A stretch of DNA of 49,132 nucleotides, taken from assembly GCA_011523565.1 (NCBI GenBank), contig WTGL01000027.1, positions 2,932-52,063 of the forward strand. The letters are read 5' to 3'. The position numbers and the translations under genes were made by a program. Origin of the DNA: Acidobacteriota bacterium. GTDB taxonomy: Bacteria > Acidobacteriota > Thermoanaerobaculia > Multivoradales > Multivoraceae. Within the stretch, counting starts at the first letter, position 1; each line of letters opens with the position of its first letter. Positions 21,961 to 48,695 of this stretch are shown here, in pieces. Under the pieces are notes generated by a model. The model ran no database searches. It saw only the letters and a list, made by a program, of their open reading frames with translations, and had not been told where the DNA came from.

Positions 21961-21990
21961 ACGCCTCGGACACGCCGCACACACCGGACG

Positions 21991-22200
21991 CACCCGCCCG
22001 TCTTGGGTCCGGAGGGGTCAGCTCCCAGGGTGACGTTCGCGCTTGAGAGGAGATGTGAGGGGATGGCACTCACTCCGCTTCACTCGCTCCGGTTGGGCGT
22101 CGGTGATTGCAACGTCGTTGGCCGTCGCTCGTTCAGAGGCACCTGGGAGCTGACCCCTCCGGACCCGACCGGGCTAGACGTCGTTGCCCTGAGCTGAGGC
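21991..22200 (+). repeat. Hairpin repeat element, copy 1 (short inner end)
   Basis: Starts CACCCGCCCGTCTTGGG. Contains a perfect 25-bp internal inverted repeat GGGTCCGGAGGGGTCAGCTCCCAGG (22005-22029 / 22142-22166). Highly similar to 44001-44210. Confidence 0.95.
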
Positions 22201-22213
22201 CCTGTGCGCCGCG

Positions 22214-23083
22214 TCAGAACAGGGTGCCCCGGACTGGCAGGTCCAGGTGTTCGTACGCTCGCTTGGTGGCCACGCGGCCGCGGCGGGTGCGCTGGAGGAA
22301 TCCCTTCTGGACGAGGTACGGCTCGTAGAAGTCCTCGATGGTGCCCTCGTCTTCGCCGACCGACGCCGCGAGCGCCTTGAGGCCGGCCGGGCCGCCCCCG
22401 TACTGCTCGATCAGCAGTTTCATGATCCTGCGATCGATCTTGTCCAGGCCCTGCTCATCGACTTCCTGCTGAAGGAGAGCCTCGTTTGCGGTGTCGCGGT
22501 CGATCCGTCCGTCGGCTTCGATCTGCGCGTAGTCACGCACCCGGCGCAGCAGCCGGTTCGCAATCCTGGGCGTACCGCGGCTGCGCCGGGCGATCTCGTC
22601 GGCGCCACCCAGATCGACGGGCACTTCGAGCAGCTCGGCCGAGCGCTGGATGATCACGCTGAGCTGGAAGTCCTCGAGCGCCGGGTAGAGGATCTCCTCC
22701 ACCGTCGGACCGAGACGGTGGATCTCGTCGATGAAGAGAACATCCCCGGGTTCGAGGTTGGTCAGGATCGCAGCCAGGTCGCCCGCCCGCTCCAGGACCG
22801 GACCGGACGTGGACCGCAACGCCGAACCCATCTCCCGGGCGATGATGTGCGCCAAGGTCGTCTTCCCCAGCCCGGGGGGACCGAACAGCAGCACATGGTC
22901 CAGAGCTTCGCCCCGCCGGCGCGCCGCCTGCATGTAGATGTCGAGCAGCTCGACGATCTTCTCCTGCCCCAGGTACTCGCTCAGCCGCTGCGGCCGAAGC
23001 GACGGTTCGAGACGACGGTCCTCTGCGTCCCCGACGGCTGAGAGAACGCTCTCCTCACCGTCGGTGCCGCCCGTCCCGGCCAT
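22214..23083 (-). pseudogene. ruvB: Holliday junction helicase RuvB with an in-frame internal deletion (~54 aa); probably non-functional, or an assembly error
   Basis: [49 protein letters not shown] and EPYL are present. EDFQL is joined directly to SVIIQRSA, with no GATTR or RDRFG segment. Length is 289 aa. Confidence 0.85.
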
Positions 23084-23108
23084 GGCCGGATGCTATCGCG
23101 GCCCCTAG

Positions 23109-23348
23109 CATGACACCGCCGCGGGCGTTGCAGGTCGGTGCCTTGCCTCAGGGCAACGACGTCCAGCCCGGTCGGGTCCGGAGGGGTCAGCTCCCAGGTG
23201 CCTCTGAACGAGCGACGGCCGACGCCCCCCACGCAACGGACGACCAACCGGAGCGAGTGAAGCGGAGTGAGCGCCATCTCCTCACATCTCCTCTGACGCG
23301 CTCACGTCACCTGGGAGCTGACCCCTCCGGCCCCAAGACGGGCGGGTG
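23109..23348 (-). repeat. Hairpin repeat element, copy 2 (full length, inverted)
   Basis: Reverse complement of copy 3 over ~240 bp, including the inner extension ...GGCGGTGTCATG. Arms at 23174-23200 / 23308-23334 with one mismatch. Confidence 0.95.
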
Positions 23349-23439
23349 AGCGCAGCGCCGTGGCGCCGGCTGGCGTTGGCGTGTACGCTAATGCGCCTTT
23401 CGCGCCCTACCGACGACGTGACTCCACCTCCAACGCACC

Positions 23440-25983
23440 ATGAAGGTCCTCAAGTTCGGCGGCTCCTCCGTGGCCGACGCAGCCCGGCTGCAGTCGGCTG
23501 CCCGGATCGTGTGCGGGCAACTGGAGAACTCGGCTGCGGACGGGGCGGTGGTGGTGTCCGCCCTCGGAGGGGTCACCGACCGGCTGCTGGGGCTTGCCTC
23601 GGCCTGCCTCGAGGAGCGCGATCCGGCTGAGGCGGCTCGCGAGGTGGAGGCGCTTCGCGTCCATCACCTGGACATCGCGGCCGAGGTGGCGGCCGACGAC
23701 GAGCAGCCGACGGTCGCGGCCACGGTCGAGGCCCTGTGCGACGACCTTGCATCGACACTGAGCGAGTGCGCGCCGGACGGCGCTGGCGACGGCCGTTCGA
23801 ACGAGGCCCTGATCGACCGGATCGTCTGCCATGGGGAACTCCTGTCCACCCAGCTCCTGGCCGCCGCGCTGCGCGCCGAGGGCCTTCCAGCCGAGGCCTG
23901 CGACGCACGCCCCCTGGTCTCCACGGACCGTTCGTTCCAGGGGGCGACCGTCGATCTGGAACCGACTCTCCGGGCGATCGCCTCGCACTTCGCCGACCTC
24001 GGCGCCGGCGCCCCGCTGCAGGTGATCACCGGCTTCCTCGGCAGCAGTCCGGAGGGCGAGACGACGACCCTGGGGCGCAGCGGCTCCGACCTCACCGCCG
24101 CCCTCGTCGGCGCCGCGCTGGATGCCGAGCGGATCGAGATCTGGACCGACGTTCCGGGCGTGATGACGGCCGACCCGCGGCGCGTGGAGGACGCCCTGCC
24201 GATCCCGCGGCTGAGCTACGAGGAGATGCTCGAACTCTCCCACTTCGGCGCCAAGGTCGTCTATCCGCCGACCGTGACGCCGGCGCGTCGCCGTGGCATT
24301 CCGTTGCTGGTCCGAAGTACCCTCGATCCCGAGCATCCCGGCACCCTGATCGACGACGACGAACTCGTCCGGGAAAGGGCCCGCGGCACCGCGGTCACCG
24401 GCATCTCCTCGATCGACGACGTCCACCTGATGCTGCTGGTCGGCGACAACCTGGTCGGCACTCCGGGCGTTGCGGCCCGCCTCTTCGAGGCCCTCGCTGC
24501 GAGCGGAGCGAGCGCGATCCTGATCTCCCAGGCTTCGAGCGAGCACTCGATCTGCTTCGCGGTCGAACCCGGCGTTTCCGAGGCGGCGAGGAAGGCGGTG
24601 GACGCCGAGTTCCGGGCGGAGATCGCGGCCGGTTCGGTGCGACCCCTGAGGGTTGAGCGGGACCAGTCGATCGTTGCCGTGGTCGGCGACGGCATGCGGT
24701 ACCGGCCGGGTATCGCCGGACGCGTGTTCGGCATCCTGGGCCGGCGCGGGGTGAACGTGCGGGCAGTGGCCCAGGGCTCGTCCGAACGGAACATCTCCAT
24801 GGTCGTGGCCCGGGCCGACGAGGGGCGAGCGGTGCGCTGGATCCACCGGGAGTTCTTCCACGGCGCCGCCTCGGGGCGGCTCGCGGTCTATGTCCTCGGT
24901 GTCGGCGGCGTCGGCTCGGCGCTCCTGCGGCAGCTCGATGCCGAGCGCGAGTCCCTCGCCCGGCAGGGGATCGACCTGCAGTTGCGGGGCCTGGCCAGCT
25001 CTCGCTACATGCGCTTCGGAACCCGCCGCGGCAAGAGCCTGGACGCCGGCGCCGCGAGCGATCCCGACGGTTGGCGGTCCGAACTCGAGCGGAACGGCGA
25101 AGGAGCGGACCTGGACCGCCTGCTCGACCACCTCGCCGAAACGGCGGCCGGCGGCGGCCGCACGGTGCTCGTCGACGTGACCGCCAGCGGCTCCATGGCC
25201 GCCGTCTACCACGGCGCGCTGTCCGCCGGCGCCGCGGTCGCCAGCGCGAACAAGCTGCCCTTCGCGGGACCGCTCCAGGACTTTCGCGCCTTCCGGCCGA
25301 ACGGAGCGCAGAACGTCTTCCACGAGGCGACCGTCGGTGCGGGCTTGCCCGTGCTCCACACCGCCGACATGCTGCTCGGCGCGGGCGACCGCATCGACAC
25401 GGTATCCGGCGTGTTCTCGGGCACCCTCGCCTATCTGACCGGCAAGCTGGGCGCCGGCGCCGTCTGGAGCGAAGCGGTCCGCGAGGCCCACCGCCTGGGC
25501 TACACGGAACCGGATCCGCGAGACGATCTCGGCGGCCTGGACGTCGCTCGCAAGCTGCTCATCCTGGCGCGGATCTGCGGCTGCGAACTCGATCTGGACG
25601 ACATCGAGGTCGAGCCCATGCTCGACCGGCCCGACCTGGCCGATCTGCCGCTCGACGGCTGGTGGGAACGGCTGGCCGAAGCCGACGGCGACATGGCGGA
25701 CCGCTTCGCCGACGCCGCGTCGGCGGGGCTGGAACTTGCCTACCTGGCCGAACTCGACATGTCCGGCGAGACGGCCGCCGCCCACGTCGGACTGCGAGCC
25801 GTACCAGCCGACCACCCGGTCGCGGGCATGCCGGCTTCGGACAACATGTTCGTGTTCCGCAGCCAGCGCTACCGGGAACGCCCCCTGGTCGTCCAGGGCC
25901 CGGGCGCCGGCACCGACCTGACCGCCGGCGGTGTCTTCGCTGACATACTTCGGGCTTGGAACGAGAGGGGCTCCGCCCCGTGA
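23440..25983 (+). CDS. thrA: Bifunctional aspartate kinase / homoserine dehydrogenase
   Basis: [26 protein letters not shown] domains ([19 protein letters not shown]), [25 protein letters not shown]. Confidence 0.96.
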
Positions 25984-26026
25984 GCGCTCCCTCCTCCGGC
26001 GGCCCGCGGCAACCAGGGAGCCCGTC

Positions 26027-27112
26027 ATGAGTCCTTTTGGCCTGAACCCGAGTCGACCCCTGCGCGCGGCGGTTCTGGGCGCGACCGGCACGGTGGGCCA
26101 GCGGTTCGTCACGTTGCTCGCCGGACACCCGTGGTTCGAGATCGAGGCGCTGGCGGCTTCCGAGCGCTCGGCCGGGAAGAGCTATCGCGACGCCGCAACC
26201 TGGATCCAGACCCGGCCGATCGACGAGACGGTCGCGGCGATGCCCGTGCACACGATCGGCGAGCTGCTGGACCGCAACTTCGACCTCGTCTTCTCCGCCC
26301 TGGACTCCAGCGTGGCCCGCCAGGTCGAACCCGCCTTCGCCAGGCGCTGCCTGGTGGTGACGAACGCGAGCGCCCACCGCATGGACGAGGACGTCCCGCT
26401 GCTGGTGCCCGAGGTCAACCCGGATCACCTGGACCTGCTGGGGCCGCCGTCGGATGGCACCCTGCTCCCGGGCGGCATCGTCGCCAACCCCAACTGCTCG
26501 ACGATCGGCCTGGTGCTGGCGCTCAAGCCCCTGCACGACGCCTTCGGCATCGACCGCCTCTCGGTGGTCACCCTGCAGGCCGTCTCGGGCGCGGGACTGC
26601 CCGGAATCTCAAGCTACGAGATCATGGACAACGTGATTCCATGGATTGCCAGCGAGGAGGAGAAGCTCGAGATCGAGACCGGGAAGATCCTCGGTCGGGT
26701 CGACGGAGGCGCGATCGATCCGGCCCGGATCGTGGTTTCGGCCCAGTGCAACCGCGTCCCCGTCGTCGACGGCCACACGCTCTGCATCTCGGTGAGCCTG
26801 AAGAGCGAGCCCGAACCGGAGGAGGTGCGGGAGGCCTGGCGCAGCTTCCGCGGCGAGCCGCAGGAACTCGGCCTGCCTTCGGCGCCGGAACTGCCTACGG
26901 TCTACCTCGGCGACGACGAGCCGCCCCAAACCCGGATTCACCGCGACCTGGGGCAGGGCATGACGGTCCCGATCGGCCGGTTGCGCGAGTGCCCCGTGCT
27001 CGATTTCCGGTTCGTCGCCCTGTCGCACAACACGCTCCGGGGCGCCGCCGGCGGCGCGGTGCTGGCCGCGGAACTCGCGGTCGCCCGATGCGCCCGGCAA
27101 ACCGGCGGATGA
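26027..27112 (+). CDS. asd: Aspartate-semialdehyde dehydrogenase
   Basis: LGATGTVGQRF, VPLLVPEVNPDHL, NPNCST, QAVSGAG, HNTLRGAAGGAVL. ATG 26027 has a GGGAG RBS. Confidence 0.95.
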   Translation: MSPFGLNPSRPLRAAVLGATGTVGQRFVTLLAGHPWFEIEALAASERSAGKSYRDAATWIQTRPIDETVAAMPVHTIGELLDRNFDLVFSALDSSVARQVEPAFARRCLVVTNASAHRMDEDVPLLVPEVNPDHLDLLGPPSDGTLLPGGIVANPNCSTIGLVLALKPLHDAFGIDRLSVVTLQAVSGAGLPGISSYEIMDNVIPWIASEEEKLEIETGKILGRVDGGAIDPARIVVSAQCNRVPVVDGHTLCISVSLKSEPEPEEVREAWRSFRGEPQELGLPSAPELPTVYLGDDEPPQTRIHRDLGQGMTVPIGRLRECPVLDFRFVALSHNTLRGAAGGAVLAAELAVARCARQTGG

Positions 27113-28116
27113 GCCGCTCGGTGAGGGCGTTCGCCCCGGCGTCGGTTTCCAACATCGCCTGCGGCTTCGACATCCTGGGCTTCGCCCTGCAGTCGGAGGC
27201 CGGCGAACCTCCGGCCGGACCGGGTGACGTGGTCACTGCGGCCGAACGGATCGGCGACCGCCGTGCCGGACCCTGCGGACCGGTCAGGATCACGGCGATC
27301 TCCGGCGACGCCGGCCGGCTGCCGCGCCAGGTCGAGCGCAACACGGCAGCCGTGGCGGCCGCGGCGCTGCTTGAGGCGGAGGCTCCGGATAAGGCCGTCG
27401 ACCTGGAGATCGAGAAGCGCATGCCGCTCGAAAGCGGCCTCGGCTCGAGTGCCGCCAGCGCGGTGGCGGCAGTCGTCGCGGTCGATGCCCTGCTGGGGCT
27501 CGACCTGCCGCCGGCGACTCTGCTGCGCCACGCGCTGGCGGGAGAGATCCTCGCGAGCGGCGGCGCCCACGCCGACAACCTGGCCCCGGCGCTGTTCGGA
27601 GGTCTGGTCCTGGTCCGCTCGCTCGATCCGGAGCCGGATGTCGTCGAGTTGCCGGTGCCCGAGGGTCTCACCTGCGCCCTCGCGCGGCCCCACACCCACG
27701 TGAACACCCGGGAATCGCGGTCGACACTCGACCGCGATCTGCCGCTTCAGCGCGCGGTGACGCAGTGGGGCAACGCCGCGGCTCTGGTGGCGTCGCTTTA
27801 CCGCAACGACCTGGAACTCCTTTCCCGATCCCTGGTCGACGTGGTCGCCGAGCCCGTACGGGGGCCGAACGTACCCGGCTTCTACGACGCCAAGCAGGCG
27901 GCTACGGAATCCGGAGCTCTCGGCTGCAGCCTGTCGGGCAGCGGTCCCGCCGTGTTCGCCCTCTGCGACGGCACAGGCCGCGCCAGGGAGGTCGCAGCGG
28001 CGATGGCGGCCGCCCTGGAGCACGCTCTGGGAGTCGACTGCGACCGGCTCGTGTCGCCGCTCCCGGCCCCGGGCGCGCGCGTGATCGAAACCGGCGACGA
28101 CGCCGGCGGAGCCTGA
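27109..28116 (+). CDS. thrB: Homoserine kinase
   Basis: APASVSNIACGFDILGFAL, PLESGLGSSAAS, HADNLAP, LSGSGP. ATG 27109 overlaps the asd stop (ATGA). Confidence 0.95.
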   Translation: MSRSVRAFAPASVSNIACGFDILGFALQSEAGEPPAGPGDVVTAAERIGDRRAGPCGPVRITAISGDAGRLPRQVERNTAAVAAAALLEAEAPDKAVDLEIEKRMPLESGLGSSAASAVAAVVAVDALLGLDLPPATLLRHALAGEILASGGAHADNLAPALFGGLVLVRSLDPEPDVVELPVPEGLTCALARPHTHVNTRESRSTLDRDLPLQRAVTQWGNAAALVASLYRNDLELLSRSLVDVVAEPVRGPNVPGFYDAKQAATESGALGCSLSGSGPAVFALCDGTGRAREVAAAMAAALEHALGVDCDRLVSPLPAPGARVIETGDDAGGA

Positions 28117-28118
28117 CC

Positions 28119-29438
28119 TTGCGTTTCGTCAGCACCGGCGGCAAGACGCCGGCGGCGTCCCTGGGCCACGCCCTGCTCGAGGGTCCGGCTCCGGACGGCG
28201 GCCTGTACGTTCCGGAGCGCCTGGAGCCGCTGACGGCTGAACAGTTGGCCCTGCTGAAACTCATGCCCCTGACCGGCATCGCGAGCATCCTGGGCAGCCG
28301 GCTGTTCGGCTCGGAGGTCCCCGAGGAAGACCTCGCCTCGCTGGTCGAAGACGCCCTCGACTTCCCCATCCCCCTCTGCCCGATCGAGCCGGGCGTTTTC
28401 TGTCTGGAGCTCTTCCACGGACCGACGCTGGCGTTCAAGGACATCGCGGCACGGGTCATGGCCCGGCTCATGTCGCGCTTCGCCGATGCCGAGGGTCCGG
28501 ACACCACCGTGATCGTGGCCACCAGCGGGGACACTGGAAGCGCCGTGGCGCACGCCTTCAGCGGTGTTGCCGGGTTCAGGGTCTGCGTGCTCTACCCCCA
28601 GGGTCTGGTGACCGAGGCCCAGCGGCGCCTGTTCACCACCCTGGGCGGCAACGTGACCGCCGTGGCCGTCGCGGGAACCTTCGACGACTGCCAGCGCATG
28701 GCCCGTGCCGCGTTCGCCGACCGCGGACTGAGACGGCGGCGGCCTCTCGCTTCCGCCAACTCGATCAACGTCGGCCGCCTGCTGCCGCAGGTCTTCTACT
28801 ACTTCCACGCCTGGGCGCAGTTGCCGCCGGCGCCTGCTGGCCAGGCAGATGGCCCGCTCATCTTCTCCACGCCGAGCGGCAACTTCGGCAACCTGACCGC
28901 CGGCCTGCTCGCCAAGCGCATCGGCCTGCCCGTCTCCCGCTTCGTCGCGGCCACGAACGTGAACGATGTCGTCCCCGCGTACCTCGTTAGCGGCGAGTAC
29001 CTGGCGCGCGCCTCGGTAGCCACGATCTCGAACGCGATGGACGTCGGCGATCCCAGCAACTTCGCCCGCATCCGGCACCTGTACTCCGACCGGATCGACC
29101 CCCTCTCCGACCTCCGGAGCGACCTGGCGGGCCACTCCTTCGACGATCGGGCAACGCGAAGCGCGATGCGCCAGGTGCACGAGAACCGCGGCTACCTGCT
29201 GGACCCCCACACGGCGGTCGGCTACCTCGGCCTGAAGGACGAACTCGAGGCCCGGGGCGGCGGCACCGGCGTGGTGCTGGGGACGGCGCACCCGGCGAAG
29301 TTCGCCGACGTGATCCGCGATGCCGTCGGCATCACGCCGCCGCTACCGGCGGCGCTCGAGCGCTGCGCGAACCTCCCCGAACGGATCATCGAGATACCGG
29401 GCGAGGACGCGGCGCTGCGGGAGGTGCTACTGGCCTAG
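28119..29438 (+). CDS. thrC: Threonine synthase
   Basis: GPAPDGGLYVP, LELFHGPTLAFKD, ATSGDTGSA, SANSINVGRL, PSGNFGN, TAHPAKF. Start placed at TTG 28119. Confidence 0.95.
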   Translation: MRFVSTGGKTPAASLGHALLEGPAPDGGLYVPERLEPLTAEQLALLKLMPLTGIASILGSRLFGSEVPEEDLASLVEDALDFPIPLCPIEPGVFCLELFHGPTLAFKDIAARVMARLMSRFADAEGPDTTVIVATSGDTGSAVAHAFSGVAGFRVCVLYPQGLVTEAQRRLFTTLGGNVTAVAVAGTFDDCQRMARAAFADRGLRRRRPLASANSINVGRLLPQVFYYFHAWAQLPPAPAGQADGPLIFSTPSGNFGNLTAGLLAKRIGLPVSRFVAATNVNDVVPAYLVSGEYLARASVATISNAMDVGDPSNFARIRHLYSDRIDPLSDLRSDLAGHSFDDRATRSAMRQVHENRGYLLDPHTAVGYLGLKDELEARGGGTGVVLGTAHPAKFADVIRDAVGITPPLPAALERCANLPERIIEIPGEDAALREVLLA

Positions 29439-29488
29439 CAGCGTGCGCGGCAGGAGGATCGGCGTGCCCTGTGCTCTTCGGCGCACGC

Positions 29489-30514
29489 TCATAGGGCCGT
29501 GTAGACCAGCCCGTCCCGCTCTTCCGACCGCCTGTCTCCGGTTCGGCCCCAGTCGGCCGGTGTGACGAGCTGGCCGTGCACCTCGAGCCCGGGCGGCACC
29601 TGAACTCCCGGCGCCACGATCGTGCCGTGGACCAGGGCTCCTTCGCCGATCCGGGCGCCGGGCATCAGCAGACTCCGCTCCGCCAGCGAGCCGGCGCCCA
29701 GGCGGCAACCGTTCTCGACGACGCTGTGCTCAACGGCCGCGCCGCTGCCAACCTTGACGCCCGGGGCAATGAAGCGCCGGCGCCGCCGGCTGCCGCCGGC
29801 CGTGCGTCCCCAGTCGAGGGCGCCGTCCAGATAGCGGCGCGGGGTGCCGAGGTCGTGCCACCGGCGACGGCAGCCGAAGCCGACGATCCGGGAGCCCGCG
29901 CGCAGGAGAGGCTGGTAGAGGCCCTCGACGATGTCGTTCGAGGTCGCTGGAGACGGAACGGCGTCCAGGACACGGCGCGACAGGACGTGCAGCCCCTGGA
30001 AGGTGCGGCTCCGTCCGCGAACCGCACCGACGCGCAGGTCGCGGAGCCCCAGGACGAGCCCGCGGTGATCGACCTCCAACCCGCCGCCCAAACCCTCATC
30101 AGGAGCCCCGGGGCCAATCTGCAGGGTGACGTCGGCTCCGCTCCTGCGGTGCCGGCCAAGCAGCTCGCGAAGCGGCCAGCGGCAGAGCGAGTCGCCATTC
30201 ACCAGCACGATGTCGTCGCCCCCGGCCAGGAAGTCCCGGAGGTTGACCACCGCTCCCAGGGTCCCCAGCAGATCCCGCTCGAGGGCGAAGGTCAGGTCGA
30301 TTCCGCGTGCAACGGCTTCCGACATGAGTCCCTGCCGCACGGACTCCGAGAGGTGGTGCAGGTTGACCGCGGTTTCGCAGCCGGCGCGGTGGAGGATCTC
30401 GATCGTGCGCATCGCCACCGCCCGACCGGCAACCGGCAGCAGCGGTTTGGCCAGCGCGCCGGTCAGCGGCCGGAGCCGTTCGCCCCGTCCGGCGCAGAAC
30501 ACGAGCGCCCGCAC
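29489..30514 (-). CDS. NDP-sugar synthase / sugar-1-phosphate nucleotidyltransferase with C-terminal left-handed beta-helix
   Basis: RALVFCAGRGERLRPLT...KPLLPV, LGTLGA, NGD, WHDLGTPRRY, then hexapeptide-like repeats. Start placed at GTG 30514. Confidence 0.85.
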   Translation of the reverse strand: MRALVFCAGRGERLRPLTGALAKPLLPVAGRAVAMRTIEILHRAGCETAVNLHHLSESVRQGLMSEAVARGIDLTFALERDLLGTLGAVVNLRDFLAGGDDIVLVNGDSLCRWPLRELLGRHRRSGADVTLQIGPGAPDEGLGGGLEVDHRGLVLGLRDLRVGAVRGRSRTFQGLHVLSRRVLDAVPSPATSNDIVEGLYQPLLRAGSRIVGFGCRRRWHDLGTPRRYLDGALDWGRTAGGSRRRRRFIAPGVKVGSGAAVEHSVVENGCRLGAGSLAERSLLMPGARIGEGALVHGTIVAPGVQVPPGLEVHGQLVTPADWGRTGDRRSEERDGLVYTAL

Positions 30515-30531
30515 CCGCCGGCTCTCGCGCC

Positions 30532-31107
30532 TCACTGTGTGAAGACCATGTCCCGCGGCAGATCCCGCCGGCCCTCGCGGTAGGTCCGGTAGAGCGCCAG
30601 GTAGTCCTCCGGCACCGCCCGCCCGGCATCGAGCCCGCAGCGCCGGCAGACCTGCTCGATCCGGTCCGGCGGCAAGTCGCCGGCCAACTCCTCCACCTCC
30701 ACGAAGCCGCCCATGGGGGTGCGGTCGAGCGCGACCTCGCAACCGAGCAGCCGCCACGTCTCGCGGACCTTCTCGTACCGTGCGGCGACGGCGAATCCCA
30801 GGGACTGCAGCACGAGCCGGGCGGCCTCCGGGTCGTCGACCGCGACCTCATGTTCCAGCCGTTCCTTGACGCCGCCCTCAAAGCGTGGAGCCGACTTGAA
30901 GGTCAGCCGGCTGCCGGCGCCGTCGGTGCGCAGACGAAGCAGCTCGCCGCGGGACCGCAGCCTCCGGTTCACCGGCTGGTCGACTCGATCGAACACCAGG
31001 TTCCTTTCCAGCGAAGCCGGGCGGTGAAGATCGGCGCCCGCCGCGAGCAGCCGCTCCCGGACGGCGTCCAGGTCGCTCACGGGGATCTTGATCTCGCGCT
31101 CGTTCAA
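30532..31107 (-). CDS. CYTH-domain protein (class IV adenylate cyclase family)
   Basis: EREIK (ExExK), LLRLR, LTFK, RLEHE, YEKVRETW, VALD, FVEVE. Start placed at TTG 31107. Confidence 0.88.
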   Translation of the reverse strand: MNEREIKIPVSDLDAVRERLLAAGADLHRPASLERNLVFDRVDQPVNRRLRSRGELLRLRTDGAGSRLTFKSAPRFEGGVKERLEHEVAVDDPEAARLVLQSLGFAVAARYEKVRETWRLLGCEVALDRTPMGGFVEVEELAGDLPPDRIEQVCRRCGLDAGRAVPEDYLALYRTYREGRRDLPRDMVFTQ

Positions 31108-32507: not shown

Positions 32508-32525
32508 GGCCCTATCCCGTTCCGG

Positions 32526-33185: not shown

Positions 33186-33268
33186 GCGTGAATCTCTCCT
33201 GAAGCGGCTTGCATGAGAAAATCCTGCTTCCTGTGTGTCAGCGCGGCGCGGACGCCGCGACTCGACTC

Positions 33269-35833: not shown

Positions 35834-35843
35834 GGCCGGCCGA

Positions 35844-38369
<2,526 letters not shown>

Positions 38370-38437
38370 TCAGTGCAATCTGTAAGTGCCTGAAAACAGG
38401 CGCTTTATGGCGTCGTGCGGCGAGCCGCTCCGGGCAG

Positions 38438-39550
38438 CTAGAGCCGCATCGGCATGATCACGCAGAGGTAGCGTGAATCGGCGCCTTCGACGGGGTGTGC
38501 GAGGCACTGGCTGTTCTCGTCCTTCAGCGCGAACTCGACCCGGTCCGTATCCACTGCGCCCAGGAAGTCGCGCACGTAGCCGGGGTTCAGACCGATCTCC
38601 AGATTCTCCGCCTCATAGTCGCATTCGAGCGTCTCTTCGGCCTCGCCAAGGTCCGGATTCGACGACGACACGAGCAGCGACCCTTCATCGAACTTCAGCC
38701 TCACCATCGGCGCGCGGTCGCCGGTCAACAGCGAAACCCGATGGACGACCCCCGACAGTTCCTGCCGGTCGAAGGACGCCTTCCTGTCGTTGTCCTTCGA
38801 GATGACCTTCTCGTAGTCCGGGAAGGTGCCTTCGAGGATGCGGCAGGTCAACTCGCGACGCCCGATCACGAAGGCGAGGTGATGCTCGCCGCGGCGAAAC
38901 GTGGCGCTCTCGTCACTGTCGAAGCGCATCAACTCCAGCAGCGCCTTGCGCGGAGCCAGCACGCCGTCCGCCTCGGCGACGCCCGGCATCTCCGCCTCGA
39001 TCAGGGCCAGACGATGGCCGTCCGTGGCCACCAATTCGACCGCGCCATCCTTGAGCTTGAGCAACGCGCCGTTCAACTGGAACCGCGACTCTTCGGCGGA
39101 AACCGCGAAGATGACCTTGCCGATCATCCGCTTGAGGTCGCCGAAGGGCGCCTCGAAGGTGGCCGAAGCCGACTCGGGATCGACCGAGGCCAGGGTCGGA
39201 AAGTCCTCGGCCGAGAGACCGTTGATGCGGAATCGCGACGAAGCGGCGGCGATGTGAAGCGAGTTCGACTCGCCCGTCGACAGCTCCACCGCACCGTCGT
39301 CGAGAGCGCGGACGATTTCCAGGAGCTTGCGGGCCTGAACGGCTGTGGCGCCCGGTTCACAGGACCCTTCCTCAGCCGCGCACGAGGACGTGAGCGAAAC
39401 GTCGAGGTCGGTGGCCGCCAGTTCCAGCCGGTCGTCGCGGACCCGCAACAGGAGATGGGAAAGGACCGGAATCGTGGACCTGCTCTCGACGATGCCGCGC
39501 ATCGCAGCGAGTTCGGTCAGCAGTTCTCTCCGTTCAACCCTGGTCTTCAT
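38438..39550 (-). CDS. dnaN: DNA polymerase III beta sliding clamp
   Basis: STIPVLSH, ATDLDV, VATDGHRLA, GTFPDY, C-terminal VIMPMRL. Confidence 0.97.
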   Translation of the reverse strand: MKTRVERRELLTELAAMRGIVESRSTIPVLSHLLLRVRDDRLELAATDLDVSLTSSCAAEEGSCEPGATAVQARKLLEIVRALDDGAVELSTGESNSLHIAAASSRFRINGLSAEDFPTLASVDPESASATFEAPFGDLKRMIGKVIFAVSAEESRFQLNGALLKLKDGAVELVATDGHRLALIEAEMPGVAEADGVLAPRKALLELMRFDSDESATFRRGEHHLAFVIGRRELTCRILEGTFPDYEKVISKDNDRKASFDRQELSGVVHRVSLLTGDRAPMVRLKFDEGSLLVSSSNPDLGEAEETLECDYEAENLEIGLNPGYVRDFLGAVDTDRVEFALKDENSQCLAHPVEGADSRYLCVIMPMRL

Positions 39551-39559
39551 CTACGCTCT

Positions 39560-39715
39560 CCTCAGGAAGTCAATATACACCATCCAAGTTGCCGTAGAAG
39601 GCACTGGGAACGGTTGTGTATGTGTCATATAAAGCATTGAAAATAAGCAGGTTATGTTTACGTGGTTCTGTCGGTAAGCGGCGGACTCGACAGTGGACTC
39701 GCTGTGCATTTCGGG
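39560..39715. promoter_or_regulatory. Candidate oriC segment (dnaA-dnaN intergenic region)
   Basis: A markedly AT-rich stretch for this window. Degenerate DnaA boxes at 39573-39581, 39615-39623 and 39669-39677, and an IHF-like site at 39630-39654. Confidence 0.65.
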
Positions 39716-39891
39716 ACCGTGCCGTGCTGGGCCCGGATCCGGCCCGGCCTGGGTCCGCAGAATGGCCGAAGCAGAAGCCCGCGAATCCGCCGCCGCCACG
39801 CAACTCGCTCCAGGGCGGATCCGCTGCGGTTCCGCAGGATGTTCGGTGCCGGCCGGTGCCGGGAACCGTCCCGCCGGGAGAGGGCGTCTCC

Positions 39892-41247
39892 TCAACCGAG
39901 TTGACGGGTGAAGCGTTCCAGTTGAGCGGCGAGGCGCTCGTCTTCGGCGCGGCGGCGCTCGATCTGCTCGACCGAGTACATCACCGTGGAGTGGTGCTTG
40001 CCGTTGAACAGCCTGCCGATTTCCGGGTAGGACATCTGGGTCAGCCGCTTGCAGAGGTACATCGCGATCTGTCGGGGATAGGTGATCTGCCGCGAGTTGC
40101 TCTTGCTCTTGATCTCGCGAACCTTGAGCCCGTAGTGATGGGCGACCAGCTTGACGATCTGCGCCGGGGACACCGGACGGTCCTGTTCCGGGAGGACATC
40201 GCGGAGGGCCTCCTTCGCGAAGTCCAGGTCGAGACGCGCGCCGGAGAGCGACGCGAAGGCGGTGACGCGGTTGAGCAGCCCTTCGAGCTCGCGCACGTTG
40301 GAGTGCACCTGGCGGGCGATGAACAGGGCGACGTCGGTATCGAGATCGAGGCTCTGCATTTGTCGGGCCTTGCGCTGGAGAATGGCCACCTTCGTCTCGA
40401 GGTCCGGGGCCTGGATGTCCGCAAGCAGACCGGAGCCGAAACGACTCCGGAGCCGCTCTTCCATGTCGGCCAGATCCCGCGGCTGCGCGTCGGACGTGAC
40501 GATGATCTGCTTCTGGCGCGTGTAGAGCACGTTGAAGGTGTGGAAGAACTCCTCCTGCGATCGCTCCTTCCTGGCCAGGAACTGAATGTCGTCGACCAGA
40601 AGGACATCGATCGTCCGGTAGCGCTCCCGAAAGGCGGGCATCCGCTCGAACCGGATCGACGTGATCAGATCGTTCACGAAGTCCTCGGCGGCCAGGTAGA
40701 CGACGCGCGTACCGGGCAGGGTGCGGCGGAGCCGGTTCCCGATCGCGTGCAGGAGGTGGGTCTTGCCCAGACCTACGCCGCCGTAGAGGAAGAGGGGGTT
40801 GTAGGCGATTCCGGGCTTCTCCGCCACCGCCTGGGACGCGGCGCAGGCGAACCGGTTCGAGTTGCCGATCACGAAGGAGTCGAAGCGGTATTGGGGATTG
40901 ATGGAACTCCCACTGGCCGCGTCGTCGTCGGCCGCCGGCGCTTTCGGGGGACGCGGCGCGGGCCGCGCGGTCTCCTTGATGGAGTCGCTGCTCTTGAACA
41001 GGACCTCGAAGGTAGGCCCCTTGAGATCGGCGATCGCCCAGTCGACGATCGGCCGGAAGCCCTCCTCCAGCGCCGCGACGAAGCGGGAGTTCGGTGCTTC
41101 GAGGACCAGCCGTTCGGCGTCCTCGGAAGCGACCCGTAGTGGGTGGAACCAGGTCCGGAACTCCTCCGGCGGCAGGTCCGCGCGCAACTGGCGGCGTAGA
41201 GTCGGCCAGACGGAACTAGGCATGTCCCGCACTCCGTTCAGCGCCAT
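39892..41247 (-). CDS. dnaA: Chromosomal replication initiator DnaA
   Basis: YNPLFLYGGVGLGKTHL, LLVDDIQF, QEEFFHTFN, RLRSRF, NVRELEG, HHSTVMYS. Alternative start ~41224. Confidence 0.98.
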   Translation of the reverse strand: MALNGVRDMPSSVWPTLRRQLRADLPPEEFRTWFHPLRVASEDAERLVLEAPNSRFVAALEEGFRPIVDWAIADLKGPTFEVLFKSSDSIKETARPAPRPPKAPAADDDAASGSSINPQYRFDSFVIGNSNRFACAASQAVAEKPGIAYNPLFLYGGVGLGKTHLLHAIGNRLRRTLPGTRVVYLAAEDFVNDLITSIRFERMPAFRERYRTIDVLLVDDIQFLARKERSQEEFFHTFNVLYTRQKQIIVTSDAQPRDLADMEERLRSRFGSGLLADIQAPDLETKVAILQRKARQMQSLDLDTDVALFIARQVHSNVRELEGLLNRVTAFASLSGARLDLDFAKEALRDVLPEQDRPVSPAQIVKLVAHHYGLKVREIKSKSNSRQITYPRQIAMYLCKRLTQMSYPEIGRLFNGKHHSTVMYSVEQIERRRAEDERLAAQLERFTRQLG

Positions 41248-41374
41248 AGGGCGCCAGCCCCGCTTCGTCCTTCCTGTTCTCCTTCCCGAGACGCACCGAT
41301 CCCCCCGACTCCAGACGCGCGCTCACCACCTCTGTCCTAGACGTTTGCTAGGGACAAGCCGCTCCGTAGAGCTA

Positions 41375-41406
41375 TGTTCCGCAGCTTTTCCGCACAGTGT
41401 GGAAAA
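41375..41406. promoter_or_regulatory. DnaA-box cluster upstream of dnaA
   Basis: TGTTCCGCA at 41375-41383, TTTTCCGCA at 41386-41394, and TGTGGAAAA at 41398-41406 (reverse complement TTTTCCACA, one mismatch to TTATCCACA). Confidence 0.65.
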
Positions 41407-41608
41407 ACTCGGGACGACCGGCGCCGAAACTGGCGGTTCTCGGCCAAGCAGGCGTCCAGTGGTTTCAGGCCGGGCGGTCTCCGTTGCGCGAGAAGGGCAG
41501 GATAGCAGCGGGCCCACGCGGGAACAAGAGGTTTCGGACCACTTTCTTCATCTTTTCTTGACGGTCGGGCGGTCGTCTGGCGGCCTCGGCCGGCCTAGGC
41601 TCTGACCC

Positions 41609-42709
41609 ATGTTGCAGTTAGTCCCTCCGGAGCGGCTCAGGGACGGGCTCCTGCACTGGTTTGACCGCTGGCGCCGCGACCTGCCGTGGCGTCGATCCGA
41701 GGATCCCTATGAGGTTCTGGTTGCGGAAGTCATGCTCCAGCAGACCCGCAGCGAGGTCGTGGCTTCGCGCTATCCGGGCTTCCTCGAGGGCTTCCCGACG
41801 CTCGATGCGATGGCCGAAGCCACGGTCGAGGAGGTGGAGGCAGCCTGGTCGGGCCTCGGCTACTACCGCCGGGCGCGGAACCTCCATCGTGCGGCCCGCA
41901 TCCTGGCCCGACGTGCCGAGCTTCCCGGGAGCGCCGCGGAATGGAGCCAGTTGCCCGGCGTGGGCCCCTACACGTCGGCGCTGCTCGCCAGCCGTCTGCA
42001 CGGTGAATGCGTGCCGGTGCTCGACGGCAACGTGGAGCGCGTGCTGAGCCGGTTCCTGGCTTCCCCGTTGCCGCCCAGGCGGGCCGAGACCCGGCGGATC
42101 CTGCTAGCGACCGCGGCGAGGCTCCTGGACCCGGAACGTCCCGGCGACTCGAATCAGGCCTTGATGGAGGTGGGATCGCTCGTCTGCCGGCACAGGCGCC
42201 CGGACTGCGGCGCCTGTCCGCTTTCTCCTGGATGTGCGGCCTTCAGCACCGCCGGACTGGATCCCCGGGACTATCCCGGCAGAGCTCGGGGTCGAGCTCG
42301 GGAGACCGTTCACTGCTTCACGGCCGTGGTCAGGAGGGATGGCGGCCTGCTGCTGCACCGCCGTCCCGGTGACGCGGAGTGGCTGGCCGGCCGCTGGCAC
42401 CTGCCGACGGTCGAACTGGAGAGGGGGGACGAGTCCGCGAGCGAGTCGGCGGCGCTGCTCGGCGAGGCGTTCGGGGGCGACTGGGAATGCGAGGATGGCG
42501 CCGTCGTTCGTCACGCGGTGACCTACCGGGACTTCTTCGTTCGGGTGGCTGTCGCCCGGTGGCGGCCTGACCCGGGGTTCGAGGTACCTTGCCCGCGGTC
42601 GGCCGCGGGTGAACTCGGGTGGTTCGCTCCGGAGGAGATCGACGAGCTGCCGACCTCGTCGCTGCTCCGCAAGTCGCTGGCTTCCATCCCAATACACTCC
42701 GGGCCATGA
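41609..42709 (+). CDS. mutY: A/G-specific adenine glycosylase
   Basis: RDLPWR, EVMLQQT, WSGLGYYRRARNL, LPGVGPYT, DGNVERV, 4Fe-4S motif C-x6-C-x2-C-x5-C, NUDIX-like tail. Confidence 0.95.
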   Translation: MLQLVPPERLRDGLLHWFDRWRRDLPWRRSEDPYEVLVAEVMLQQTRSEVVASRYPGFLEGFPTLDAMAEATVEEVEAAWSGLGYYRRARNLHRAARILARRAELPGSAAEWSQLPGVGPYTSALLASRLHGECVPVLDGNVERVLSRFLASPLPPRRAETRRILLATAARLLDPERPGDSNQALMEVGSLVCRHRRPDCGACPLSPGCAAFSTAGLDPRDYPGRARGRARETVHCFTAVVRRDGGLLLHRRPGDAEWLAGRWHLPTVELERGDESASESAALLGEAFGGDWECEDGAVVRHAVTYRDFFVRVAVARWRPDPGFEVPCPRSAAGELGWFAPEEIDELPTSSLLRKSLASIPIHSGP

Positions 42710-43908
42710 CGACGGTCACCGAGCGACGGCAGCCGATTCCCTTCATCGACCTGGCCGCTCAGTCGAGGCGGCTGCGGCCGGAGATCGATCGGCGGATCGC
42801 GGCCGTCCTCGACCATGGCCGCTACGTCATGGGACCCGAGGTCGAGGAGCTGGAGGCTGAGCTCGGCAGGCTCGGCGGGGCGACGGCGGTGGCCGTATCG
42901 AGCGGTTCGGACGCCCTGCTGATCGCGCTGCTTGCACTGGGCGTCGGCCAGACCGAAGGGCGGCGGGACGCGGTGTTCGTTCCGTCCTTCACGTTCACGG
43001 CGACGGCGGAAGTCGTCCTGCTTGCAGGCGCCGTCCCAGTGTTCGTCGACGTCCGGGAGGATGACTTCCTGCTCGACATGGGTTCCCTCGAGCGAGAGTT
43101 CGAGACGCTGGAGCGGGCCGGCGGCGCCGTCCCCCGGGCAGTCATCAGCGTCGACCTGTTCGGCCAGCCGATGCCCCGGCAGCCGCTGGCCGACTGGGCG
43201 GCTTCGAGGGGGCTGGAGGTTGTCTCGGATGCCGCGCAGAGCTTCGGGGCCCGTCGCGGCGGGCGGCCCGTGGGGTCGCTGGCCGCCGTGACGACGACCA
43301 GCTTCTACCCCGCCAAGCCGCTCGGCGCCTATGGCGACGCCGGGGCGATCTTCTGCACGGAACCGGCCGCCGCCGAGGTCGTGCGTTCGATGCGCGAGCA
43401 CGGCCAGAGCGCCGACCGCTACGACATCGTGCGGCTGGGGATGAACGGCAGGCTGGACACCCTGCAGGCCGCCGTTCTGCTGGCGAAACTGACGATCTTC
43501 GAGCAGGAACTGGCCGCCCGCCGCGCGGTCGCCGCCGGCTACACCAGGAGGCTGAGCGCGACGTCCGCGCCGATGGGCACGCCCTGGCGCGTCGCCGTGC
43601 CGGTGTGCGAACCCGACGTGGATTCGAGTTGGGCCCAGTACACGCTGCGGGTCGACGACGCGGACGGAAGGCCGTCCGCGGAGACACGGAACGCCCTGCG
43701 CGCCCACCTGGCACGGGCCGGCATTCCGACCGCGGTCCACTACCCGCTGCCGATGCACCTGCAGCCAGCCTACGAACCGCATGGCCGTGGTCCGGGATCG
43801 CTGCCGGTCAGCGAGAGCCTGGCCGACCGGGCCGTCAGTCTGCCCATGCACCCCTACCTCGACGAGTCGACGCTCGACCGCATCTGCGAGCGCATCGCGA
43901 CCGCTTAG
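42706..43908 (+). CDS. DegT/DnrJ/EryC1/StrS family sugar aminotransferase
   Basis: IPFIDL, SSGSDAL, FTFTATAE, DAAQSFGA, SFYPAKPLGAYGDAG, NGRLDTLQAA. ATG 42706 overlaps the mutY stop. Confidence 0.93.
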   Translation: MTTVTERRQPIPFIDLAAQSRRLRPEIDRRIAAVLDHGRYVMGPEVEELEAELGRLGGATAVAVSSGSDALLIALLALGVGQTEGRRDAVFVPSFTFTATAEVVLLAGAVPVFVDVREDDFLLDMGSLEREFETLERAGGAVPRAVISVDLFGQPMPRQPLADWAASRGLEVVSDAAQSFGARRGGRPVGSLAAVTTTSFYPAKPLGAYGDAGAIFCTEPAAAEVVRSMREHGQSADRYDIVRLGMNGRLDTLQAAVLLAKLTIFEQELAARRAVAAGYTRRLSATSAPMGTPWRVAVPVCEPDVDSSWAQYTLRVDDADGRPSAETRNALRAHLARAGIPTAVHYPLPMHLQPAYEPHGRGPGSLPVSESLADRAVSLPMHPYLDESTLDRICERIATA

Positions 43909-44010
43909 CGTCGAGCTGCACCCGCGGGGGCGTCGGACGCACCCGCGGGGACGTCGGCTGCACCCGCCTGGCGTCGGACGCACCCGCCTGGCGTCGGACG
44001 CACCCGCCCG
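43908..44010 (+). repeat. Five tandem 20-22 bp units, consensus GCGTCGGACGCACCCGC(C/G)NG
   Basis: Units at 43908-43929, 43930-43950, 43951-43970, 43971-43990 and 43991-44010. The last unit overlaps the outer end of repeat copy 3. Confidence 0.93.
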
Positions 44011-44241
44011 TCTTGGGTCCGGAGGGGTCAGCTCCCAGGGTGACGTGAGCGCTTGAGAGGAGATGTGAGGGGATGGCGCTCACTCCGCTTCACTCGCTCC
44101 GGCTTGGCGTCGGTGAGTGCAACGTCGCCGGGCGTCGCTCGTTCAGAGGCACCTGGGAGCTGACCCCTCCGGACCCGACTGGGCTGGACGTCGGTGCCGC
44201 GAGGCGAGGCACCGACCTGCAACGCGCGCGGCGGTGTCATG
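44001..44241 (+). repeat. Hairpin repeat element, copy 3 (full length)
   Basis: Perfect 25-bp arms at 44015-44039 / 44152-44176 with the same 112-nt spacer as copy 1. The inner extension to GGCGGTGTCATG is shared with copy 2. Confidence 0.95.
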
Positions 44242-44295
44242 TTTGGCGGCTTGGCAAGACCAGGTCCGGGGGAGGGCGCTAGCCTCGGATTTGGC

Positions 44296-45606
44296 ATGGC
44301 TGCTTCCCGTTCGCACGGACTCGACAGCGGCGATCGGCTGCCGTATGTCAGAACGTCGGTTCCGGGGCCGCGTGCGCGGAGGGCGGCCAGGCGGCTCGAA
44401 GGAGCTGAGGCGCCGGGGATCAACACCCTGGTCGCCGGAAGCACCGCGATGCTGTGGGAGGCGGCGCTCGGCAGCAACGTGCTGGATATCGACGGGAATC
44501 GCTATCTCGACCTGACGGCTGGATTCGGGGTTGCCGCAGTGGGCCATCGGCATCCCGCTGTGGTCTCGGCGGTCAAGCGGCAGGCGGACCGCCTTCTTCA
44601 CGGGTTGGGTGACGTGTTTGCGCATCCTTACCGTCTGGAATTGAGCGAGCGTCTGGGTCGCCTGGCGCCGCTCCGCGAGCCGCAGGTCTACTTTGCCGCC
44701 TCTGGAGCCGACGCGGTGGAGATCGCGCTCAAGACAGGGCGCCTCTACAGCGGCCGTCCTGGAATCCTCGCGTTCACGCCGGCCTACCACGGCACCACGT
44801 TGGGGGCCCTCCAGGGCACTTCGAGGCCGGCTTTTCGAAGCCCCTTCATCGAGCCACTCGAGCATCTGGTTCACCGTTTGCCCTACGGCGCGGCAGCTGA
44901 AGAGGTGCAGCAACTCCTGGAACAGCAGCCGGAGATCGGAACCTGCCTGGTCGAACCCGTGATCGGCCGCGAGGCCACCCGATGGCCTCCTCCGGGCTGG
45001 TTGGCCGCATTGGCCGCGGCATGCCGTGAGCACAAGGTGGTTCTGGCAGTCGACGAGATCTTCACCGCGTTCGGCCGCTGCGGGGAGTGGTTCGTCAGCG
45101 CGGAGGCGGGTATCGAGCCCGATCTCATCTGCTGCGGCAAGGCCCTGGGCGGCGGTCTTCCGATCGCCGCCGTGATCGGTGAGAAGGACGTCCTGGCCGC
45201 TTGGCAAACGGAGGGCGAGGCTCGCCACACGGCGACATTCGTCGCGCACCCACTCGCCTGCGCGGCGGCTCTCGCGACACTCGATGTGATCGAGAGTGAG
45301 GGGCTGGTGCAGCGGGCCCAGGAGATGGGCAGACGTTTGGGCCACCGCCTGGAACCACTCAAGCAGCACCCCGTCATCGTCGATGTCCGAGGAAAAGCCC
45401 TCTTGTGGGGCGTGGAACTCGATACACCGAAACGCGCGCCCGGTCTCTGTCGGCAACTCCTGGAGCGTGGCGTGATCGCCCTGAGCGGGGGTGCAACCGG
45501 CACCGTGGTGCAGATCGCGCCACCGCTGGTGGTCACCGAGCGCCAACTCGACTACGCGGCAGATTCTCTGGTCGAGGCTGCTCTTGGCATGTGTTCCGAC
45601 TCCTAG
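44296..45606 (+). CDS. Class III PLP-dependent aminotransferase (GABA/ornithine aminotransferase-like)
   Basis: DIDGNRYLDLTAGFGV, SGADAVEIALK, YHGTT, EPVIG, DEIFTAFGRCG, GKALGGGLPI. An alternative in-frame ATG lies at 44239. Confidence 0.9.
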   Translation: MAASRSHGLDSGDRLPYVRTSVPGPRARRAARRLEGAEAPGINTLVAGSTAMLWEAALGSNVLDIDGNRYLDLTAGFGVAAVGHRHPAVVSAVKRQADRLLHGLGDVFAHPYRLELSERLGRLAPLREPQVYFAASGADAVEIALKTGRLYSGRPGILAFTPAYHGTTLGALQGTSRPAFRSPFIEPLEHLVHRLPYGAAAEEVQQLLEQQPEIGTCLVEPVIGREATRWPPPGWLAALAAACREHKVVLAVDEIFTAFGRCGEWFVSAEAGIEPDLICCGKALGGGLPIAAVIGEKDVLAAWQTEGEARHTATFVAHPLACAAALATLDVIESEGLVQRAQEMGRRLGHRLEPLKQHPVIVDVRGKALLWGVELDTPKRAPGLCRQLLERGVIALSGGATGTVVQIAPPLVVTERQLDYAADSLVEAALGMCSDS

Positions 45607-45689
45607 CGCTCGCCTACCAGAGAGCGTCCGTTCAAACCCCTCGTCCAGCCCACCGCCCTCCAGCCCGGCCGGGGTCTGTGGGGAGGCTT

Positions 45690-45886
45690 GGCAACGACCG
45701 CCAGCCCAGTCGGGGCCGGAGGGGTCAGCTCCCAGGTGCCTCTGAACGAGCGACGCCTGACGACATTGCGGTCACCGACGCCCAACCGAAGCGAGTGAAG
45801 CGGAGTGAGCGCCATCCCCTCCCATCTCCTCTCAAGCGCTCACGTCACCTGGGAGCTGACCCCTCCGGCCCCAAGACGGGCGGGTG
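45690..45886 (-). repeat. Hairpin repeat element, copy 4 (short inner end, inverted)
   Basis: Perfect 27-bp arms at 45712-45738 / 45846-45872. Ends CCCAAGACGGGCGGGTG. Confidence 0.95.
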
Positions 45887-48567: not shown

Positions 48568-48695
48568 GAGAGGTCAATGAAGGGTTCCGGCTGTACTGCG
48601 CCCTCGAAACGAACACCCTATCGCTGCTCCCTTCCGGGCCTGACGAGGTTCGGGGCCGCTCGAAACACAGGGCCCGAACCCTTCGGTGACCTCTC
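48568..48695 (-). ncRNA. ffs: Signal recognition particle RNA
   Basis: The minus strand contains the helix-8 motif GTCAGGCCCGGAAGGGAGCAGC, within a long stem closed by GAGAGGTCA/TGACCTCTC. It lies directly upstream of dnaX. Confidence 0.92.

Follow-up and report, generated by a model that had tools for sequence, protein, structure and literature searches.

Inversions documented between inverted repeats concern mostly large segments between copies of insertion sequences (IS) or rRNA operons, or else small promoter switches driven by an invertase. For inverted IS copies, rRNA operons and the inverted repeats of plastids (flip-flop), the crossover takes place inside the repeat, the arms are homogenised and both isomers are viable. 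Correia repeat-enclosed elements, which are MITEs (miniature inverted-repeat transposable elements) of Neisseria, have target duplications and known promoters. The passages of PMC10969869 on inversion, composites and ERIC (enterobacterial repetitive intergenic consensus) sequences report inversion and RNase III processing for Correia elements, describe ERIC as non-coding, imperfectly palindromic, transposase-free and present in tens to hundreds of copies in intergenic regions, often at the 3′ ends of genes, and mention no gene-flipping pairs. Here we analyse a dispersed repeat, named EL, which brackets ruvB and a class-III aminotransferase gene in a 49,132-nt stretch of DNA (the window) from an Acidobacteriota bacterium; at these two loci an intact gene appears to have been turned at least eight times within one genus by a non-coding repeat family of ∼200 nt. 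EL pairs are a variation on known ERIC/MITE-like repeats and on repeat-mediated homologous inversion, with a strict pair polarity. Compared with inversions between IS, rRNA or plastid repeats, a single gene of 1–1.5 kb is enclosed here between arms of 200–250 nt that belong to a non-coding repeat of 40–100 copies, and the flips recur at the same two loci in many species. Invertons of the Hin/Gin, Fim and Piv types are likewise segments bounded by inverted repeats and found in two orientations (here among species), but typical inverton repeats are about ten times shorter than EL arms, and EL cassettes have no adjacent invertase and enclose a whole housekeeping gene rather than a promoter or part of a variable gene.

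The window comprises positions 2932–52063 of contig C299 of the studied metagenome-assembled genome (MAG), G000, which has 3.72 Mb in 327 contigs, 68% G+C and 88.7% completeness; genomes of the comparison set carry G-numbers, contigs C-numbers and fetched loci L-numbers, and at NCBI the genus appears under the titles Candidatus Multivorans and Thermoanaerobaculia, sponge symbionts. In a first-pass annotation, ruvB and the aminotransferase gene had each been described as enclosed by an inverted pair of one element (four copies in all), with the CACCCGCC ends facing outward. Both a repeat search and an nhmmer profile, iterated over the whole MAG to convergence, recovered this arrangement, and both pairs run ‘+ then −’. 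The two cassettes and their flanks are laid out as follows.

21343..21960, + strand: ruvA, left flank of cassette 1 (Pfam RuvA_N, HHH_5, RuvA_C).
21991..22184, + strand: EL copy A, 192-nt core with conserved ends at ∼21979–22198, 31 nt past the ruvA stop (nhmmer model 1–192).
22214..23083, − strand: ruvB, a 289-aa frame inverted relative to ruvA and thrA (in relatives 343 aa with RuvB_N, AAA_lid_4, RuvB_C).
23104..23348, − strand: EL copy B, core 23156–23348 plus inner extension 23104–23155, ending 20 nt before the ruvB start (repeat search, nhmmer).
23440..25983, + strand: thrA (aspartokinase-homoserine dehydrogenase), right flank of cassette 1 (Pfam AA_kinase, ACT_9, Homoserine_dh).
42619..43908, + strand: DegT-family aminotransferase, left flank of cassette 2 (Pfam DegT_DnrJ_EryC1).
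43918..44008, no strand: 20-nt tandem array of 4.4 copies that extends into copy C at its 5′ end (tandem-repeat analysis, sequence reading).
44001..44246, + strand: EL copy C, core 44001–44193 plus inner extension to 44246 (repeat search, nhmmer).
44296..45606, + strand: class-III aminotransferase, cargo of cassette 2, here co-directional with degT (Pfam Aminotran_3).
45694..45886, − strand: EL copy D, 46 nt past the recR stop and in sense with recR (repeat search, nhmmer).
45932..46519, − strand: recR, right flank of cassette 2 (Pfam RecR_HhH, Toprim_4, RecR_C).

The four window copies are mutually 88–93% identical. The earlier description of a long copy upstream and a shortened one downstream of each gene holds in so far as only B and C carry a ∼50-nt inner extension, contained in a common stretch of 121 nt (23104–23224 and 44126–44246, 92% identical) and lacking in A and D; the 192-nt core, on the other hand, is complete in all four. 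No further EL lies in the window, as had been stated, but solitary copies do exist elsewhere in the genome: G000 has 41 ELs by iterated nhmmer, of which 31 are full length, nearly all are intergenic and 10 form five close pairs. A fifth copy on the contig of the window lies 3.6 kb past the window end (C299:55700–55890).

Both the ruvB and the aminotransferase cassettes were found in two orientations among species, with breakpoints inside the ELs, which bears out the gene inversion proposed in the first-pass annotation. At the first locus the order ruvA–(EL)–ruvB–(EL)–thrA was found in 41 species, with ruvB direct in 33 and inverted in eight (G000, G002, G005, G015, G019, G023, G048 and G055), and this placement of ruvB, between ruvA and thrA, is shared by species that lack an EL at the locus. 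In the pair G006 and G015, which are ∼90% identical, the flanks are collinear through both ELs and the whole EL–ruvB–EL block is reversed. Inverted genes were seen at 4 of 15 loci with two arms and at 3 of 12 with one arm; among 14 loci without an EL hit, 13 were direct and the single inverted one, in G002, carries an EL scar. The missing arm is a collapsed remnant or scar in the inverted G002, G005, G019 and G055. On a flank tree of ruvA and thrA DNA, ruvB orientation needs seven changes, at least five of them forced by well-supported branches, and is about as scattered as shuffled labels (shuffled mean 7.4 changes). Among the 23 genomes assembled in ≤10 contigs, three changes were counted, and the inverted state occurs in assemblies of one, four and seven contigs (G055, G015 and G023). 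For RuvB, 36 of 42 genomes, among them seven of the eight with an inverted gene, have a best match that covers the full 343 aa and contains no stop; the exceptions are G000, whose match is split by a 159-bp gap, G011, G012, G013, G018 and G045, with shorter matches, and G041, whose match is partial and has one stop. The 159 bp missing from G000 (53 codons of the AAA+ core, at window 22661–22663) are present in relatives and also in a 1211-nt contig of the likely source run X1 (depth ∼1000), and the gap most probably reflects an assembly defect or a minor variant rather than a pseudogene. Because of this defect, the inverted state of G000 rests on its sister G019, which is unambiguous because one of its arms has collapsed.

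The class-III aminotransferase gene is co-directional with degT at 21 of 30 loci and opposite at the other nine, and its orientation needs three changes over all 29 genomes on the tree and also three among 17 high-contiguity assemblies. It stands between degT and recR in species without an EL there as well, and over 36 kb the only departures of G016 from collinearity with the window are ruvB and the aminotransferase gene. The alternative offered by the first-pass annotation, a gene-capture unit, is thus unsupported for both window cassettes, because ruvB and the aminotransferase gene hold the same neighbours in species without an EL at these loci. Further cassettes, around apbE, a gene for a 413-aa protein and a PstI-type restriction-modification (R-M) system, showed a single orientation in the two to six species compared. 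Six cassette families have the same flanks in all species compared and each lies at one locus, the exception being one changed flank in G024. In the G024 locus L250 (∼9040; G024:C1 ∼1107040), synteny with the window stops at the outer end of the EL of the aminotransferase cassette, and recR/dnaX are replaced by a thiG region; this break suggests that ELs also mark larger rearrangements.

Arm identity is 0.83–0.99 in the two cassettes that flip and 0.72–0.83 in the apbE, 413-aa and PstI-type cassettes. The ruvB arms of G001 are 0.99 identical to each other as against 0.86 to any orthologue, those of G010 0.96 as against 0.88, and both arms of G015 match one G007 arm at 0.98. Moreover, homogenisation spans the full length of the arms, including the inner extension. 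Since the two arms of one genome resemble each other more closely than they do their orthologues, we infer homologous exchange and gene conversion between the inverted repeats; breakpoints inside repeats, flips only where arms are highly similar and homogenised arms (G001, G010, G015), as in homologous inversion between inverted repeats, were all found. Hence, we consider it probable that general (RecA-type) homologous recombination between inverted ELs flips the enclosed genes and that these flips are largely neutral; this is the pathway that we propose. Two ELs of the same subfamily, inverted around a gene, would serve as the arms, a crossover inside them would turn the enclosed gene around, gene conversion would keep the arms alike, and collapse of one arm by a deletion across its hairpin would freeze the current orientation. 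Both ruvB and the aminotransferase gene are intact and natively placed in either orientation, so that flips look near-neutral rather than like an on/off control.

The identical geometry at two unrelated loci had been taken as non-random, unless two such pairs were to be expected by chance. In the following, a close pair has a gap below 3.5 kb, ‘+−’ denotes 5′ ends facing outward and ‘−+’ 5′ ends facing inward. In five complete genomes, where copies were counted with a covariance model and weak and opposite-strand echoes below 66 bits were dropped, the close pairs comprised 17 ‘+−’, no ‘−+’ and five tandem, whereas random placement and orientation gave expectations of 2.1, 2.2 and 4.3 (2000 trials; maximum of eight ‘+−’). 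The outward-facing pairs are therefore in ∼8-fold excess, and with positions fixed none of 5000 orientation shuffles reached 17. At gaps of 3.5–10 kb, the same genomes had six ‘+−’, six ‘−+’ and 11 tandem pairs. Of the five tandem junctions in close pairs, four come from G014, where they make up two tandem runs, one of which is a four-copy array with three junctions. Loci of other genomes, from which 11 loci of the five complete genomes had been removed and among which residual duplicates are possible, had 14 ‘+−’, two ‘−+’ and five tandem close pairs, and G000 had five ‘+−’ and no ‘−+’, tandem pairs not being counted. Thus the enrichment of outward-facing pairs is strong and genus-wide. Apart from ruvB and the class-III aminotransferase gene, the bracketed cargos are ApbE after nqrF, TatB-TatC, a PstI-type R-M system with a RAMA protein, a Zn alcohol dehydrogenase, PTPS with DUF1330, an MqsA-like antitoxin pair and the 413-aa protein, which has no Pfam match; some pairs enclose nothing (gaps of 25–100 bp).

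Part of this polarity may follow from where ELs lie. An EL is typically intergenic, with its 5′ end just downstream of the stop codon of a co-directional gene: on the 5′ side of 149 distinct copies in loci of relatives we found a stop codon for 94, a start for 31 and no gene within 400 bp for 24, and on the 3′ side 39 stops, 39 starts and 71 without a gene. Because ELs lie after stop codons, outward-facing pairs are likely between convergent genes. This rule leaves unaccounted for the ruvB and apbE cassettes, in which the right-hand arm faces a gene start, and the ∼8-fold pair excess. Direct pairs may be under-represented because they would delete their cargo. Duplicative inversion was rejected as a general origin of the pairs, since the arms of some cassettes are only 0.72–0.75 identical and come from different subfamilies, of which there are at least three.

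Several points weigh against homologous recombination as the whole explanation. It predicts no polarity, and inward-facing pairs should form and flip equally; moreover, arms of different subfamilies share the outward polarity, so that something else builds or keeps the pairs. The identity of the arms may result from frequent exchange rather than cause it. Short-read assemblers can mis-set segments between near-identical inverted repeats, and the orientation in G000 is taken from a short-read MAG whose ruvB is 159 bp short. The trees were obtained by a quick search from 1.8 kb of DNA on the flanks, and the gene calls behind the stop-codon rule come from our own crude GC3-based caller. The inversions are known from species comparison, which supports inversion on an evolutionary scale; in the four runs examined, out of 19 sponge metagenome runs that contain window DNA, the k-mer contigs (Logan) stop inside the ELs. 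‘Opposite strand’ joints in the run contigs are accounted for by the homologous copy C and a more abundant relative, and a RuvB scan of metagenome contigs gave 80 loci, all ≤57% identical, with no contig of the same species among them.

The EL core of 192 nt is extended by ∼12 further conserved bases per side to ∼219 nt with conserved ends. In a longer variant of ∼270 nt, two extra covarying hairpins (∼75 nt) are inserted near model position 44; it was seen in G000 at C20:2180–2450, C43:7838–8100, C250:11990–12236 and C306:738–1010, and the thrA-side arm of the G007 ruvB cassette (L063) is of the same kind. The predicted fold is a single long rod whose outer helix and asymmetric core are conserved and whose inner helix has 24 bp, and conserved single-stranded motifs stand beside variable covarying stems. 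RNAalifold predicted 40 pairs in the EL alignment, 27 of which have compensatory changes. The paired fraction of alignment cells was 96.1%, compared with 79.5% after shuffling and 40–53% when partners were slid by 1–3 columns; double-change cells numbered 202 against 55 expected, and none of 500 shuffles attained the observed value on any measure. Folded as single-strand DNA, the one copy analysed (copy C) gave −72.6 kcal/mol (z = −6.1). The inner helix varies among copies almost solely from Watson–Crick to Watson–Crick pairs, wobble or A-C cells being rare, and 22 of its 24 pairs (columns 31–58 with 165–192 of alignment A1) are without any one-sided (wobble) change. These double Watson–Crick changes suggest that pairing is maintained at the DNA level, and the pattern, which is unusual for an RNA helix, hints at a DNA palindrome that is actively kept perfect. 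A peptide-coding role was rejected and EL is taken to be non-coding, because indels between copies shift the reading frame. Rfam 15 gave no match over EL at gathering scores and none up to E = 1 for four copies, and scans of both cassettes for sigma-70-like promoters and intrinsic terminators placed no site within any EL.

By BLAST, EL is present in 21 of 24 genomes of the genus and in none of 16 genomes from 15 other genera of the order. A pattern scan with one genome per species gave at least 115 matching stretches; among the 80 listed with titles, 77 belong to MAGs titled Candidatus Multivorans, Thermoanaerobaculia, Holophagales, Acidobacteria/Acidobacteriota or Vicinamibacteraceae, and three are single hits in unrelated organisms. 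The five complete genomes have 96, 50, 47, 39 and 60 covariance-model matches, including 87, 30, 35, 24 and 37 strong copies (≥66 bits). About a dozen sites that are filled in relatives are empty or scarred in G000, which indicates that copies are gained and lost; alignments of filled with empty sites are too diverged to define the exact ends of the element. For the orientation of ELs, no clear replichore bias was seen.

The first-pass annotation had seen no transposase or recombinase gene in the window, and this agrees with our search, which gave no match to PF00589, PF00239, PF01548 or PF01797 on the contig of the window. The whole MAG gave no Y1/RAYT (REP-associated tyrosine transposase), IS110 or serine-recombinase match, and its eight tyrosine-recombinase matches are all on other contigs that carry no ELs. 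A RAYT-like Y1 gene occurs once or twice each in 18 of 31 genus genomes; it was not found in the EL-rich G006, G007, G019 and G024 nor in G000, and none of six fetched RAYT-like loci had an EL nearby. At these loci (L196–L201, six genomes), the RAYT-like gene is single-copy, its translation shows HUH and Y motifs on visual inspection, and arrays of another repeat, ∼100 nt long, flank it; together they look like a separate REP/RAYT (repetitive extragenic palindrome) system in the genus. IS110 is present in 16 of the 31 genomes, and one of ten IS110 loci holds a partial EL. In the loci examined, no Y1/RAYT, IS110, tyrosine or serine enzyme was linked to EL, and no parent insertion sequence with EL ends was found among the fetched loci.

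These results bear on the possibility that the cassettes are a programmed switch, in which a recombinase encoded elsewhere would read the EL motifs or the hairpin and flip genes reversibly in populations, changing their expression, with ruvB as a repair toggle. The near-random scatter of ruvB orientation fits such a reading because it implies that flips are fast on the time scale of speciation, the strict polarity of the pairs may point to a directional site, the single-stranded motifs beside covarying stems resemble folded recombination sites, and tyrosine recombinases are encoded in the genome. We nevertheless regard it as doubtful: no invertase lies beside any cassette and none of the four Pfam families searched matches the contig of the window, cassettes of the same geometry with dissimilar arms keep one orientation in the species compared, homogenisation of whole arms is typical of homologous exchange, and genes are intact where the inverted state is locked, so that inverted does not mean off. 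Similarly, it seems rather unlikely that the outward-facing pairs are a built device, in which some activity on the folded DNA hairpin would place or keep pairs with fixed polarity and flip genes in living populations. If this were true, a genus-wide recombinase acting at a distance would re-orient housekeeping and accessory genes, including ruvB, the Holliday-junction motor.

Still less probable, in our judgement, is a composite non-autonomous mobile cassette, whose two outward-facing ELs would be the ends of a unit mobilised in trans that carries its gene to new sites. The outward orientation of identical ends is what composite transposons show, accessory genes are among the cargos (the PstI-type R-M system, the MqsA-like antitoxin pair and the alcohol dehydrogenase), the presence of ELs varies among species at many sites, and the synteny break in G024 falls at the outer end of a cassette. 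Cargo G+C is slightly under that of the flanks in most families, and this difference of 0–6 points is too weak to be used for a foreign origin. Against such mobility, the surroundings of ruvB, the aminotransferase gene, apbE and tatBC are native or conserved, ruvB and the aminotransferase gene keep their place in species without ELs there, and each cassette family is found at one locus only. Furthermore, no target duplication specific to each copy was seen among 116 copies (best 8-mer match between flanks 5.91, compared with 5.96, sd 0.07, for re-paired flanks), several cassettes have arms from different subfamilies, and no transposase is linked to EL. The least credible account is that an abundant repeat lands independently beside genes and that the inversions are short-read assembly artefacts, since, although EL is indeed abundant, its stop-codon preference favours outward pairs between convergent genes and the G000 cassette has an assembly defect, the pair excess is unmatched by any orientation shuffle, inverted states occur in assemblies of very few contigs and at collapsed-arm loci free of repeat ambiguity, and inversions are confined to loci that have or have had ELs.

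In kind, EL is an ERIC/MITE-like element, a genus-specific dispersed repeat. Like ERIC sequences, also called IRU, it is non-coding, imperfectly palindromic, multi-copy, intergenic, often placed at gene 3′ ends and without a linked transposase; it differs in length (195–270 nt against 127 nt for ERIC) and comes from a different phylum, no sequence relation being expected, and it has a copy-specific, perfectly paired 24-bp helix and outward pairs around genes. As in MITEs, EL is small, non-coding and multi-copy with ends paired in the outer helix, and its presence varies between relatives; a copy-specific target duplication and, among the fetched loci, a parent IS with the same ends were not seen. 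With Correia elements EL shares the nature of a structured MITE-like repeat near genes, but there the element itself inverts, whereas here the gene between two ELs does, and EL has neither a target duplication nor a sigma-70-like promoter match. With REP and REPIN elements, which RAYT transposases mobilise, it shares dispersed hairpins with covarying arms and no target duplications, although a REP has only about a fifth of the EL length. Membership of a REP/REPIN–RAYT system was rejected, as the repeats neither flank nor co-occur with the RAYT-like gene, and so was that of a composite transposon, the bracketed unit being at one site per family. No recombinase linked to the cassettes, as in an inverton, was found on the contig of the window either; the sole IS110 inside a ruvB cassette is in G014 (L055 4969–6078), 80 nt from an arm. 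A literature search of listings and abstracts found no paper on repeats of the Candidatus Multivorans genus.

With homologous inversion between ELs as the preferred reading, the two loci offer a natural series on the influence of short dispersed repeats on the order and strand of genes, on the importance of orientation for a gene such as ruvB, which normally follows ruvA, and on how palindromic repeats stay perfect, with arms homogenised while active and scars left after decay. They also carry a practical warning, namely that the orientation of a gene between such repeats is unreliable in short-read MAGs.

Some further observations concern single ELs and their surroundings. The unit of the 20-nt array beside copy C looks like the 5′ terminus of an EL fused directly to a 3′ terminus, as though ELs had collapsed completely and then multiplied, and a similar array adjoins the aminotransferase cassette in G024 (L050 5039–5245). 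In G014 (L078 2506–3319), four ELs form a head-to-tail array with 9–12-nt spacers, the only such array seen. In G000 (C61:41528–46162), an EL is split (model positions 1–95 and 75–192) by a 4.4-kb insert, in which the gene caller proposed three lower-GC3 open reading frames (279, 354 and 162 aa); a relative (L188) has an intact EL there. At L134 (4093–5324), an IS3-family element with its own ends splits an EL. Finally, Rfam matches in the window are a tRNA gene (4435–4507) and a small SRP RNA gene (48581–48679), which have no relation to the EL finding.

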